Shown here: positions 30,885-49,344 of the stretch, in pieces
How the letters are laid out: the number at the start of each line of letters is the position of its first letter
Numbering within the stretch: position 1 is the stretch's first letter
Source: Octopus vulgaris
Taxonomy: Eukaryota
Reading direction: 5' to 3'
Length of the DNA stretch: 64,000 nt
Assembly (NCBI GenBank): GCA_951406725.2
Contig: OX597825.1
Location: 25,420,001-25,484,000, forward strand
Notes under the pieces: generated by a model
Databases searched by the model: none
Seen by the model: only the letters and a program-made list of their open reading frames with translations
Told to the model about the DNA's origin: nothing
Position numbers and translations under genes: made by a program

Positions 30885-31080
30885 TTCGTTTTTGGATTTG
30901 GTTTTCAAGATTCTTTATATGAGTTCGTGTGTTGAAGCATATTCTGTTATGTTTGGGGAGAGTCATTTTCTTTTTTTTGCCTTATTATGTAACACACTCA
31001 CCGGTAAAATTTCCACTTTTTTCTTATTTGTATTTTCCTAAAATTTTCGTTGCGTCTTGCAACCTTTTCAATAGTTTTGA
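30885..31080 (-). mobile_element. short PLE-type insert: HHR plus conserved terminal motif, in (TA)n
   Basis: HHR at 31038-31074 and 34-nt motif at 30905-30938. Confidence 0.65.
31038..31074 (-). ncRNA. minimal hammerhead, U3-A8 variant
   Basis: CUA-UUGAAAA-G-GUUGC-AAGAC-GCAAC-GAAA-AU-UU-UAG. Confidence 0.6.
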
Positions 31081-32012
31081 TATATATATATGTTTTGGGC
31101 GAAATGCCCCTAAGCATTTCGTTCATTGTGTTAACGATTCTACCAGCTCGCCACCTTTAAATGATAATGATGATGATAATAATAATAATAATAATAATAA
31201 TAATAATAATAATAATAATAATAATAATAATAATAATAATAATAATAACAGGAGGGTTCTGAGCACTTGAAAGACTGCTGAAAACTTGTAGATTCCTAAG
31301 GTTACAGGTAGTAACCCACTACCCACATAAGTCCTGCCAGGAATAAGACCAACCTGAACTAAACCAAAATAATGATACATACATACATACATACATACAT
31401 ACATACATACATACATACATACATACAAACACATATACATACATACATACATACATACATACAGACATACATACATACATACTTACGTACCTACACACAT
31501 ATGCGTGTGTGTATATATATAAGCGTGACTGCATGTATGTGAGCGTCTGTGTGGCTTGATTTGTTTTTAAATTCTAATAAATCGAACATATCGATTCTCC
31601 TTTAATATAGTTAATCACTATGAAAGCGATATTTGATTATGGACAAAACTAATTATAAGGGCTTTGGTAGCTCTGTATTACTGTAAATTATAATGAATAT
31701 TTTTAGTAGGGAAGTTAAGTAGTAAGAATATAAATCTGAAGATTTAACATTTGAGTTAGAAGCGACTCTATAATGTAAACGTTGTAAGCTCTATGATCTA
31801 AATGTAATGCATACATCAATTGCTTTGAAGTATGCTATGTTTTCAATATACTACGCCCAAAAGCGTTTAACATGAGACATACATTAAGAACGTGTGACAT
31901 AGATAATATTTACATTACACAGATGCTTTTAACTCAAAATTAAAATTTTGTTTTACTTGCGTAGCGCAGTAGTAAGTCAGCTGATAGATTTTTACTCTAT
32001 CTGTCTATATTT

Positions 32013-32113
32013 CGGGCGGGCGGGCTGGTAATTTGATTTCCTCTTGAGGGTCATTCGATTATACGGAACTGATGAGCTGAAGTAAAAGCGAAATCTCGAT
32101 ACCATTCGTTCGT
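32013..32113 (+). ncRNA. type III hammerhead-like motif with extended closing helix
   Basis: UUGAGGGUC-A-UUCG-AUUAUA-CGGA-A-CUGAUGA-GCU-GAAGUAAA-AGC-GAAA-UCUCGA. Confidence 0.55.
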
Positions 32114-32439
32114 GTTCACCCCCGGGGCGATTCATTACGCCTGGGTTTGAAGAATATTGGTGCTTCTCAACACACTGCGACTTTAAAAGGAGATTCCCTG
32201 AACGAAATACTGCAGCCAAAAAGCATTTAGCAACACTCATACAAGAAGTATGTGGCATCGATAACACACACACAACCATATATATCTGAATAGATCCATA
32301 TATATATACATATAAATGTCTATATTTAAGCAAGTATGTATGTATCTATTTATTTATGTGTGTATATGTATATATACATATACACATCATATATATATAC
32401 ATATATATATATATATATATATATATATATATATATATA

Positions 32440-44584: not shown

Positions 44585-44898
44585 TGTTCCTTCTCGAGCC
44601 ATGCCTGGCTCATAAGGGTCGGTTTCCCCGGTTTCCTTGGCGTATAGGTTCCCCCCCCCCGCCCCTGGACGGGACGACGGGACACCGGTCTGTCGCAGGT
44701 GAGCTGCTAGATGCTGGAGGAAAGAGTGAGAGAAAGTTGTGGCGAAAGAGTCAGCAGAAGTTCGCCATTACCTTCTGCCGGAGCCACGTGGACCTTAGGT
44801 GTTTCGCTCATAAACACAAACATCGCCCGGTCTGAGATTCGAACGCGCGATCCCTCGATCGCGAGTCCGATGCTCTAACCACTAGGCCATGTGCCCCC
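44585..44898 (-). mobile_element. SINE family A variant
   Basis: tRNA-like head at 44830-44898; tail related to 8980-9085. Confidence 0.75.
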
Positions 44899-47237
44899 AA
44901 CAATACGATCAATGACAGAAAAATACGAAATGGATGTATATACATATTTCAAGAGTTATTGCTCTTTCAACAGTACTACACCCAATCCATCAACAATCCA
45001 CAATTTATTGCTACAATACTCGCCGCTTAAGATCTAGCGGCGTAACACTATTGGATATGCCATTTTACATATCAAACACATTCCTGGCAACTGGTACGTA
45101 CGTATTAATTGCTGGTAGGGACACACACCGTATTTCAGTTTTATTATCATTATTATACTCCGCCAGTTACACGTTAACGTAATGAATCGGAGGCTCAGTC
45201 GATCGAACATCTGAATGCTCATCGTCGAAGCCATCGGAGGATCCATCGCGCGTGTACACAAACATACACACAAGCGATTATGCGCGCACGCACACACGCA
45301 TGTATGTATGTATGTATGTATATATATATATATATATATATATATATATATATATATGTATGTATGTATGTATGTCTGTCCTTAGATACATATGCTGCCT
45401 GTACAAAATACAAATGTATATATGTATATATATATATGTATATATGATTAAATAAATGTATGTCTGTATGTATGCGTATATATATATATATATATATATA
45501 TATATATATATATATATATATATATGTATGTATGTATGTATGTACATATATATATGTATGTATGTCTTTCCTTACATACATCTACTGCCTGTGCAAAATA
45601 TAAATGTATATATGTATATATGATTAAATAAATGTAAGTCTGCATGTCTGCATATATATATATATTTATATATATATATGCGTATATACATATATATCTA
45701 TATATTTTGTGTGTGCAAGTACATAAGTAATGCATATATGTAACACGCAAAATACGAATAAATAACTAAACAGACACACACACACACACACACACACACA
45801 TATATATATATATACTCACTCGCACACATAGTTGCATTAAGTCTGGTGCATCATACAATTAGTCAGAGTTTGAAACTGTCGGTACTTATATGTTTAATAC
45901 AAAGTTCTCTATATTGTGGACGACTTGAAAACATTTCGTTCGTAAACAATAGAGCTAATTATGTATGCTTGCAGGTATATATTTAAATATACTGGGAAAG
46001 AGCATGATCTACAATAGTAGATATTAATCAAGACATCTAGTAAACTCTTCCGACATTGCTCGCAATGCTGCGCTTCCATAGTTTTCTTCAGGGGAGATTG
46101 AGTAACGATGATTTTAGAGCCTGCTGTGTCTCTATATATGGATACCAATCGGATCAACGCAAGAGTCTCTGGGTAAAGTGAAAACAAGATCCATTTTTAT
46201 CAAAAACATACGCTTAATCGACAAATATATATAAACAAAACGGGTCCCTTTGGTGATTAACATTTTTTAAGTGCATGACTTGCGGGAAATAGAGGCAAAG
46301 CAATGATAAGATTTTGAGTGCATACCTACTCTCGTTTTTGAGAAGGTATACTTTACCGAGCATTAACATTTATATATCGACTGGTTAACATTGACGGAAA
46401 ATTAGAATATTTATCAATTCCAACCAAAGAAGTTTGAACACTCTAAAATTTTAACCACTAAAAATTACGTGTACGAGAGAATTTCGTAAGCACACCTTCC
46501 GTTTCTATATTTTTAGATTAAGCAGGTATTTTGTTCTTTCGGTTTATGGTAAAACGACTGTTTGTTTCGGTTCATCCTAAATGTTTTTTGCAAACCCTGC
46601 TGCTATTTATATACAGAGATAGCGTACATGAAAATACAATTACTCTTATTCTCCTGATGAGCTATGAAAGCGAGCGAAACCTTGCACAAGCTGCACAAAC
46701 ATTTTATTAGATATTTAGTTTAACGACATGTAATATAATGCCATTTTTTAATATATTTAAATGTATACCTACATGCATATAAATATATACACATAAATGT
46801 ATGTATGTATATGCAGAGTTCAATTCTCCGTGGCGCCTTCTATCAATTTTTTTCTCCATCTATAGGGGTATTTTTACCACATTCTTTGAAGCTGTTTTCA
46901 CAGATATTCTCCTGCGTTCAAATTTTCTTAAATTTTAAAAACATGTTACTCACTCGACGCTTCAATGTTTTTTTTTATAAAAATGTCCTCGCATTTCATA
47001 AAGTTATTAATTTAGCGTTACAAAATACGGCATCAGTTGTCACAGGGGTCATTTAGCTCAACGGTATTGAGCACTGAGCCGTAATTTAAGAGGTACAGAG
47101 TTTGATACACTAGAGCTGCTGCTAGCTACCCCTTTCTGTCTATAGAGACATTTTTACCCGATTTTCTAAAGCTACTTTCATAGCTGTTCTGCGTTCGAGA
47201 TTTTCTCAATATATATAAGAAAGAAGAAAAAACAAAG

Positions 47238-47281
47238 GACCACTGATGCGGTCACAGGAGTGTGACGAAAGAACTCTGGCC
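47238..47281 (+). ncRNA. minimal hammerhead (C3-G8, A9C) in PLE-type insert at about 47200-47458
   Basis: GACCA-CUGAUGC-G-GUCAC-AGGAGU-GUGAC-GAAA-GAAC-UC-UGGCC; 34-nt terminal motif at 47406-47439. Confidence 0.6.
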
Positions 47282-49344
47282 GAAATAAGATTAAGATTAA
47301 TGTAAAAAATAAATAACACTGAAGCAAAATAACACCAAATATATAGTGCGTGTGTTTTTATTGGCTAAACTGGCAAAATGACCATTCCGAAATATAACAA
47401 TATCTGTTTCAACACACGACTTCACATAAAAAATCTTGCACAACAAATATTTAAACGTATATATATATATATATATACACAATACATGCCGGCGTACTAA
47501 GAAACCATGAAAGGAGGTCTAGATTTCTAGTGATAACATATTCTTCTTAAAACTGTCGCACTCTAAGAATGGAGCCATTGTTGTAGACAGTCAGGCGATT
47601 CGTGCAGAAGATTTCAACATATACCTTGTGGATTTTGGAACCTCTCGAAGAAGATCCTGTCTAGAAATCGACGAACAACAGCAAGAGAATGTACGCATTA
47701 GCTTAACTATTCCATCATTAACGTGGATAATGATGATGATGATGATGATAATAATAATAATAATAATAATAATAATAATAATAATAATAATAATAATAAT
47801 AATAATAATAATAATAATAATAACAATAATCCTAGGATGGAATTTATTAACATTTAATGCATCGCTATGCGCGTTGCCACAAATAGCTGCATATTCAAAA
47901 CGTTACCATAAACAAATATATATATATAAAGACACACACACACATATATGGAAAAATATTATACATGTATATTATGAATATATATATGTGTGTGTGTGTG
48001 TATGTGTTGTATACACAAATATGTATGTGCGCATGCGTGTATACGATTCAAATTCTGTTGTTAAAGAGAGAAATTTGCGTCGCTAGTGAAACGAAGATAC
48101 ACAAACACGTACACACACATACACACACACATACACACACACATACACACACACACACATACACACACACACAAGTATAGGGATATACATAGTTATACAA
48201 ATGCACACCCAGTAACACACGTAATCATGTATCAAAGTCCACAGCGTATCATCCATTACAAATTTGACCTTGTCTTTACCTCTTGTTTCTAAAGAGGGTC
48301 AGCAGAATTCAAACAGCGCTCCTATTTGAACTCAGAATGTAAATGGACGTAACTTGGTATCTTAAGGCGATTTGTTCGGCAATCTGCTGTTTCTGCTGCT
48401 CCACTGCTTTCTGTAAATTGAATATTGATTTAATACAGTCTGAAGAGAATTTGGTAGATGCTTACCTACATATATACGTATATACACAGATATATGGATA
48501 CATATATATATACATACATAATACTATACATGCATGCATATGTACACACATATGTACCCAGACGTAGACATACACATGTCATATATTCGTGTATGTTAGT
48601 GTATCTCTGTCTCTGTCTGTCTGTCTGTCTGTCTGTCTCTCTCTCTCTATATATATATATGCACACATGCATATATATATATATATATATATATATATAT
48701 ATATATAGATACATACATACATACATACATACATACATATATATATATACGTAATATGCGTAGACATACGTGTATATATTTGTATATATATGTATCAACA
48801 TACATGTATATTTACATGCACATGTTCACACATGCGCATATATGAGTATGTATGCATGTATATATGTATGTATATGCATGTATTTATATATATTTATATA
48901 TGTATCTATATGAATATATATACACACACGCATATGTGTGTGTGTGTGTGTGTGTGTGTGTGTGTGTTTAATATATCCCGAGGAATCATTTCGTTTCAGC
49001 TCCGTAAGTACTTTGGACTCGGACCAAGGAAATTACAACTTTCTGGTATGAATCCTAGTCGAAAGGAAAATATTTCTGGCAAACACTAACCCAGCAAGAA
49101 ATAGAATTATCATCGCATCTATATTTTGATAAAAATTCAATTAGACAGTGCAAAACTCGAATTATAAAATGCTTAAAAATAATGCCTTTTAAATACGATG
49201 CGATATACGTAAGATATCACATTATATCTTATTAGGATGGCGAGAGGAAAGTGATAGTGAGAGAGAGGAAAAGAGAGAGAGAAGGAGGGAAAAGGAAATT
49301 TTCACGTATAGCACTGTATAGTGCTTTCATTTACTCTTTTCTTT

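Follow-up and report, generated by a model that had tools for sequence, protein, structure and literature searches.

Minimal type I hammerhead ribozymes are known from the pseudo-long terminal repeats (pLTRs) of Penelope-like elements (PLEs), including families of Schistosoma mansoni Cercyon elements in which core positions 3 and 8 form a U3-A8 pair (Cervera and de la Pena 2014, PMC4209133). In the Poseidon element PAc of Anolis carolinensis, reverse transcription is initiated internally, at two positions within the 5′ end of the open reading frame (ORF), the stretch between them being the tail, and an engineered C3G/G8C exchange partly rescues the hammerhead, which needs protein (Frangieh et al. 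2024, PMC11167929). Neptune and Nematis, which are PLEs with a C-terminal endonuclease (EN), are marked by a CX2-5CxxC linker before the EN (Craig et al. 2021, PMC8557442). Here we report on a stretch of 64,000 nucleotides of the Octopus vulgaris genome (contig OX597825.1, positions 25,420,001 to 25,484,000; hereafter the window), which contains three inserts, assigned to families F1, F2 and F3. The inserts are 5′-truncated 3′ ends of sister PLEs with reverse transcriptase (RT) and GIY-YIG domains, and their hammerhead motifs carry U3-A8, G3-C8 and C3-G8, respectively. Throughout, PMC4209133, PMC8557442, PMC3088659, PMC3884650, PMC8495972 and a retrozyme preprint (bioRxiv 10.64898/2026.07.22.740005) are cited for the available parts of their texts.

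All three motifs combine a 5-bp stem II, a GAAA, a short palindrome or near-palindrome and the second strand of stem I (Table 1). The cores, extra G, stem II pairs, GAAA and stem III were found where the original prediction had placed them, with the third motif starting at 47237; its reading as a C3-G8 variant also stands, while its C9, a second departure from the consensus, had gone unflagged. A relaxed descriptor leaving positions 3, 7, 8 and 9 free matched three times in the 64 kb, exactly at these motifs, compared with a mean of 0.27 matches (maximum 2) in 30 dinucleotide shuffles of the window. A strict form (Watson-Crick 3-8, stem II of at least 5 bp, one extra base), drawn up only after the finding had been seen, matched in 0 of the 30 shuffles. 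Focused scans of the three motifs with Rfam covariance models gave no match to a hammerhead model at E values up to 10, and the whole-window scan gave microsatellite-driven microRNA matches only, among the matches listed (150 of 437). With RNAfold, stems I and II were formed for the F1 and F2 monomers; the minimum-energy structure was not a hammerhead dimer for any of the three, a result left uncounted as the method does not model the core.

The motifs resemble the PLE hammerheads of PMC4209133 in their pLTR position, the extra base between positions 9 and 10.1, G10.1-C11.1, the palindromic 15.2-16.2, the occurrence of solo and opposite-strand copies, and covariation to U3-A8 (approximately 1,300 matches there). 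They also carry the A15.1-U16.1 pair and H17 of that class. Their cores (UUGAAAA, GUGAACA and CUGAUGC) depart from its CUGANGA, with U3-A8 being an accepted variant. They differ further in that the extra base is G, that G3-C8 is the commonest pair, and that sister lineages within a single genome carry three different 3-8 pairs. In the available text, none of the 56 representatives of Fig. S3 has G3-C8 or C9, for which the descriptors used there would not have looked. The earlier assignment to PLE-type minimal hammerheads thus holds; as to whether the family was already described, the U3-A8 covariation and the extra nucleotide are both in PMC4209133.

The inserts had been taken for a family of small retroelements, but they are the ends of three full-length lineages linked to RT-EN ORFs. 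Upstream, longer genomic copies cross a region rich in microsatellites and then enter an ORF that has RT and GIY-YIG motifs. For F3, 654 open codons of RT-EN (YVDD, YVGET) lie upstream of the pLTR in locus L134; F1 is linked to pieces of the ORF in locus L139, and F2 to RT-EN in loci L154, L157, L164, L169 and L327. Pfam searches gave RVT_1 at E 4e-4, short of the curated cut-off, and GIY-YIG in an F1 piece at E 8e-5, which passes it, and the F1 and F2 protein pieces showed 40-66% identity to the F3-type protein. Locus L322 (F3) has a tandem structure consisting of a pLTR, the tail, an ORF broken by frameshifts and one stop, and a second pLTR; among the loci examined, neither F1 nor F2 showed such a pLTR-ORF-pLTR tandem. 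A CX2-5CxxC linker precedes the EN (CTNNYCTVC in F3 and CTNDNCMAC in F1, with a CCHH motif read by eye) and was present in 45 of 51 homologues carrying an EN motif. The elements would accordingly be labelled as Neptune/Nematis-type, a label drawn from motifs. The order of RT and GIY-YIG, the tandem and inverted pLTRs, the tail at one end and the microsatellite targets are also shared with these groups, whose tails of 30-40 bp are shorter than the one found here (PMC8557442). A search of prokaryote genomes gave no member of the protein family.

The 34-nt terminal motif previously noted in all three inserts is present in each, but the hammerhead at 36417-36466 (+) lies on an inverted arm, the tail-bearing F2 copy being on the minus strand. 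The motif is protein-coding: it continues in frame into the ORF in locus L322, and its translation is F(N/S)TRx(H/Q)IK in all three families (CFNTRTHIK in F1 and FRFSTRSQIK in F2). A homologue (P0075) has a similar N-terminus beginning MVKTKLPCYGLCFSTR, and in locus L340 FNTR is written in other codons at the N-terminus (by eye). The motif is therefore the N-terminus of the Penelope-like ORF, i.e., the known PLE tail. Its exact pattern gave 12,686 genome matches, versus 0 for the control. The hammerhead lies approximately 90-135 nt upstream of the first ATG of the ORF; in F2, a stretch resembling a branch point, pyrimidine tract and AG was observed 22 nt before the core, and neither a donor nor a spliced copy was identified. 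As in PAc (PMC11167929), the tail would fall between two internal starts in the 5′ end of the ORF, targets are AT-rich and the hammerhead is near the ORF start. Unlike in PAc, the whole hammerhead precedes the ATG, the tail measures approximately 55 nt and within the first 30 codons, G3-C8 occurs naturally, and the protein has the CX2-5CxxC linker, which Poseidon lacks.

To place the cores on a phylogeny, 162 copies with both motif and tail were grouped into 19 clusters, and a pLTR tree of 25 rows was built with the core left out. The G-C (100/99), U-A (99/97) and C-G (87/87) copies each formed a clade, and the protein tree had the same shape, ((F1,F3),F2) (100/99), within one octopus clade. 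The predicted covariation of the 3-8 pair was thus recovered, by lineage. Fifteen of the 19 clusters were Watson-Crick at 3-8, and both stem II and the stem III palindrome varied with pairing preserved. An older, diverged G3-C8 radiation was also found, in which G3 was present in 9 of 10 copies picked for C8 alone and the loops varied; a decayed fourth hammerhead in the window belongs to it (Table 1). An alignment with 15 hand-picked rows, all paired at 3-8 (15/15), is illustrative and not a test.

The genome search covered 2.8 Gb in 227 contigs and used a stem-II pattern that leaves positions 3, 7, 8 and 9 free and fixes parts of stem II, so that it counts this clade and not all hammerheads of the genome. 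It yielded 18,497 matches, versus 42 for the reversed control. Among these, 16,574 (89.6%) were Watson-Crick at 3-8, comprising 7,057 G3-C8, 5,432 C3-G8, 4,073 U3-A8 and 12 A3-U8, and 3,677 C3-G8 matches lacked A9. The window core was shared by 27 of the 30 best-scoring F1 copies and 30 of the 30 best-scoring F2 copies; the 28 for F3 comprised 20 with CUGAUGC, 3 with CUGAUGA and 5 not parsed, all of these sets leaning towards the query sequence. The CUGANGA core accounted for only 1,755 of the 18,497 matches (9.5%), which is all that CUGANGA-based searches would see, as had been anticipated. Given this share and the cores common to the best copies, each window core represents a dispersed family's consensus, and not copy-specific decay from a CUGANGA consensus. 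The G3-C8 pattern was not found in viral contigs.

A3-U8 was considered as a fourth lineage and rejected: two transitions would account for 6 of its 12 matches, which are F2 copies, and L131/L132 (G000:C28), an F1-related copy with A3-U8, is present twice in a duplicated segment. Two small repeated groups, L218:1500 (CUGACCU) and L213/L223/L236 (CUGACUU), have a hammerhead-like layout with a mismatched 3-8; these may represent decayed motifs that were multiplied as parts of other repeats.

Ten related metagenome loci were examined as outgroups, giving 2 descriptor matches, 2 motifs readable by eye and 6 loci with nothing clear. The descriptor matched CUGACGA in L340 and UUGAAAC in L339:2497 (+); as the latter motif has both U3-A8 and C9, C9 arose or persisted outside octopus too. 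The motifs read by eye were UUGAGAA (L341) and CUGAAGA (L338). Since C3-G8 and U3-A8 were seen again in these relatives, the 3-8 pair appears to have changed at least about three times to give three lineages with one pair each, every established lineage being Watson-Crick. Natural 3-8 covariation has been reported for other hammerheads, with U3-A8 alone named in the available text (Perreault et al. 2011, PMC3088659). Read by eye, the hammerhead-like motif of L338, approximately 110-160 nt after the ORF match, seems to carry U15.1-A16.1 rather than A-U, and it contains the palindrome UAGCUA.

Copy ends were analysed in a sample of 100 copies, taken as the first matches to the tail on contig C1. 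Sixty copies had an inverted arm, and 53 of the 60 arms stopped at most 15 nt from the start of the terminal motif, while forward copies stopped approximately 50-55 nt past that start; the two end sites are therefore approximately 55 nt apart, both within the first 30 codons of the ORF. The insertions show 5′ inversions, target-site duplications and (TA)n targets. The whole core was kept in 57 of the 100 copies, with 35 copies starting 1-28 nt upstream of it and 44 truncated at scattered points downstream of where the core begins. Short F2 copies begin with GAG in 13 of 34 cases, and all 19 long copies have TAG or CAG (p = 0.002, with a few rows being duplicates). The extra 5′ G is probably a copied cap at a transcription start; the alternative is a short spliced exon, for which no matching donor was seen by eye. 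Four contig sets presumed to derive from RNA, when aligned with an F2 copy, are uninformative on ends, strand and level and were left uncounted. On either reading, most templates of the short copies were probably uncut RNA.

We consider it probable that the inserts are 5′-truncated 3′ ends of three sister PLE lineages whose hammerhead is predicted to cut weakly, likely only as a dimer or when aided by protein, and in which selection on the active fold is likely to preserve the 3-8 pair. By analogy with PAc (PMC11167929), the PLE protein would bind the start of its own ORF, nick AT-rich DNA and start reverse transcription internally at two sites, so that copying would run back through the hammerhead. 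Most short copies would be complementary DNAs of uncut RNA begun 10-25 nt upstream of the core, the ribozyme sitting in the 5′ untranslated region and single-motif RNA being copied uncut. Cutting would act on tandem transcripts, in which two motifs would pair via the palindromic stem III and release unit-length RNA. In such a dimer, the core of one partner would cut the site of the other, and insertion would need no immediate cutting; a mismatched 3-8 intermediate could thus survive long enough for a second change to restore pairing, and this would account for the rise of G3-C8. Separately, a composite inverted insertion (L116-L119, G000:C1 approximately 3,092,100-3,092,900) was observed to hold an F3 and a CUGAAGA motif approximately 275-300 nt apart on the same strand, making it a candidate natural mixed dimer.

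Several observations weigh against this account. Genomic copy numbers are not independent, and the covariation rests on about three changes; all of them ended paired, consistent with selection, yet the number is small, and two double changes that both restore the pair would occur by chance in an estimated 1 in 9 cases. Of the original claim, the covariation by lineage is upheld, and selection on the ribozyme fold is likely but depends on these few independent changes. The remaining 4 of the 19 clusters, all single copies, were not Watson-Crick, and 1,923 of the 18,497 genome matches were mismatched at 3-8, which is about what a copy divergence of a few per cent would be estimated to yield. The small repeated group of L218 has C3 opposite C8. 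The search pattern fixes positions 4-6 and parts of stem II, whose invariance is therefore no evidence. The two motifs of an inverted insertion are encoded on different strands, so that a single transcript cannot hold their dimer, and copy ends did not pile up at the predicted cut site (3 of 100 within 3 nt; 3 of the 44 downstream ends, p = 0.38). Lower activity is expected from C9, found in the young F3 lineage with its long open frames, and from U17 in F1 and F2. In a viroid hammerhead, an extra G is detrimental. All motifs here have G as the extra base, whereas the published consensus, in the available text, is H (A, C or U), again implying lower activity. PLE hammerheads cut poorly, and hammerhead mutants of PAc insert normally in vitro, with no RNA ends seen at the cut site (PMC11167929).

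The C9, the U17 and extra G, the missing copy ends, the unaffected insertion of mutants and the few independent changes would all suit vestigial or nearly inactive hammerheads, with the hairpin kept for protein binding, RNA dimerisation, or promoter or translation control, and the three pairs being two or three lucky fixations carried by successful lineages. We regard this as unlikely, because the 3-8 pair is confined to the catalytically active fold (PMC3088659), and a plain hairpin role would not keep it. Moreover, G3-C8 was held across a diverged radiation in which position 7 and loop II change freely, and U3-A8 recurs in two outgroups and, according to the available text of PMC4209133, in Schistosoma. 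A separate short non-autonomous family, similar to short interspersed nuclear elements or retrozymes, transcribed from solo pLTRs and amplified via small or circular RNAs, would fit the narrow zone in which 35 of the 100 copies start, the extra 5′ G of F2 and the derivation of retrozymes from PLE pLTRs (bioRxiv 10.64898/2026.07.22.740005), but is very improbable in view of the continuation of the F1-F3 pLTRs into RT-EN ORFs, the absence, in the loci examined, of short units arrayed head to tail, the 44 copies cut at scattered places, and the equal short copies that internal priming on full-length RNA yields (PMC11167929).

With respect to novelty, earlier publications cover PLE hammerheads, their extra nucleotide and palindromic stem III, the natural occurrence of U3-A8 and the laboratory C3G/G8C rescue, and what is provisionally new is a natural G3-C8 lineage and a C9 lineage. 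G3-C8 has been described as a laboratory variant (PMC3884650, PMC8495972, PMC11167929). Neither a natural G3-C8 lineage, an octopus case nor a C9 lineage was found in the literature searched, from which Lunse et al. 2017, a possible source of G3-C8, fell outside coverage; the available texts of PMC6765202, PMC6155905, PMC7151607, PMC10085705, PMC2920678 and the retrozyme preprint hold no natural G3-C8. The non-LTR retrozymes of that preprint share the origin from PLE pLTRs and the type I hammerheads; they are head-to-tail tandem non-coding units, unlike the copies described here, which lie scattered through the genome in single or inverted form and are continuous with coding elements.

More tentatively, and with less than even confidence, we propose that one PLE clade has sampled three of the four Watson-Crick 3-8 pairs, with a working natural G3-C8 ribozyme being dominant (>7,000 copies) and a C9 form existing beside it. 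Complementation in dimers would have carried the clade across inactive intermediates, and the ribozymes would be tuned to be weak and switched by protein. Standard descriptors would miss approximately 90% of such motifs, so that elements regarded as lacking hammerheads may carry variants. If true, the pattern would provide evolutionary evidence for the importance of cleavage in vivo, even though cleavage is dispensable for insertion in vitro; a pair specific to the active fold and kept through repeated swaps in sister lineages bears on the in vivo role of PLE hammerheads. The natural G3-C8, U3-A8 and C9 motifs supply constructs for tests with their own proteins, and the small share visible to CUGANGA descriptors affects ribozyme censuses and claims of absence.

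Table 1. Features of the three inserts and of related copies in the window (window coordinates).
Feature	Position	Strand	Description
Short same-clade copy	12590..12700	+	ORF start and tail; truncated downstream of hammerhead
Fourth hammerhead, decayed	22266..22307 (approx.)	-	GUGACCA, G3 at 22304; older G3-C8 radiation, on inverted arm
Tail remnant beside fourth hammerhead	~22374-22430	+	
F1 copy	30886..31080	-	5′-truncated 3′ end (pLTR and tail) of PLE, inserted in (TA)n
F1 ORF first codons	30886..30966	-	MTLPKHNRICFNTRTHIK...; last ~55 nt are the tail holding the terminal motif
F1 hammerhead	31038..31074	-	Minimal type I, core UUGAAAA (U3 at 31071, A8), extra G; stem II GUUGC/GCAAC, stem III palindrome AAUU, U17; predicted cut between 31041 and 31040
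F2 target-site duplication, left	36208..36221	+	14 bp, identical to 36550-36563
F2 copy	36222..36408	-	Core GUGAACA (G3 at 36406), stem I 5′ arm shortened, tail
F2 ORF start	36314	-	Within F2 copy
F2 insertion, inverted 5′ arm	36408..36549	+	Stops just short of tail
F2 hammerhead	36417..36466	+	Minimal type I, core GUGAACA (G3 at 36424, C8), extra G; 7-bp stem I, stem II GUCGC/GCGAC, palindrome AAUAUU, U17
F2 target-site duplication, right	36550..36563	+	14 bp
F3 copy	47215..47459	+	5′-truncated 3′ end of PLE, in (TA)n
F3 hammerhead	47237..47281	+	Minimal type I, core CUGAUGC (C3 at 47243, G8), extra G; C9 replaces A9, stem II GUCAC/GUGAC, near-palindrome AGAACU, C17
F3 ORF first codons	47378..47459	+	Including tail

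Three further features of the window were observed. A 317-codon frame with RT-thumb and GIY-YIG (18730-19683, minus strand; Pfam GIY-YIG E 6e-6) belongs to a different Penelope-like family. A 242-codon frame was found at 61495-62223 on the plus strand, and we take it to resemble a mariner/Tc1 transposase. Finally, a perfect 298-nt inverted repeat with 6 nt between its arms (58409-59010) is possibly a fold-back insertion or an assembly artefact.

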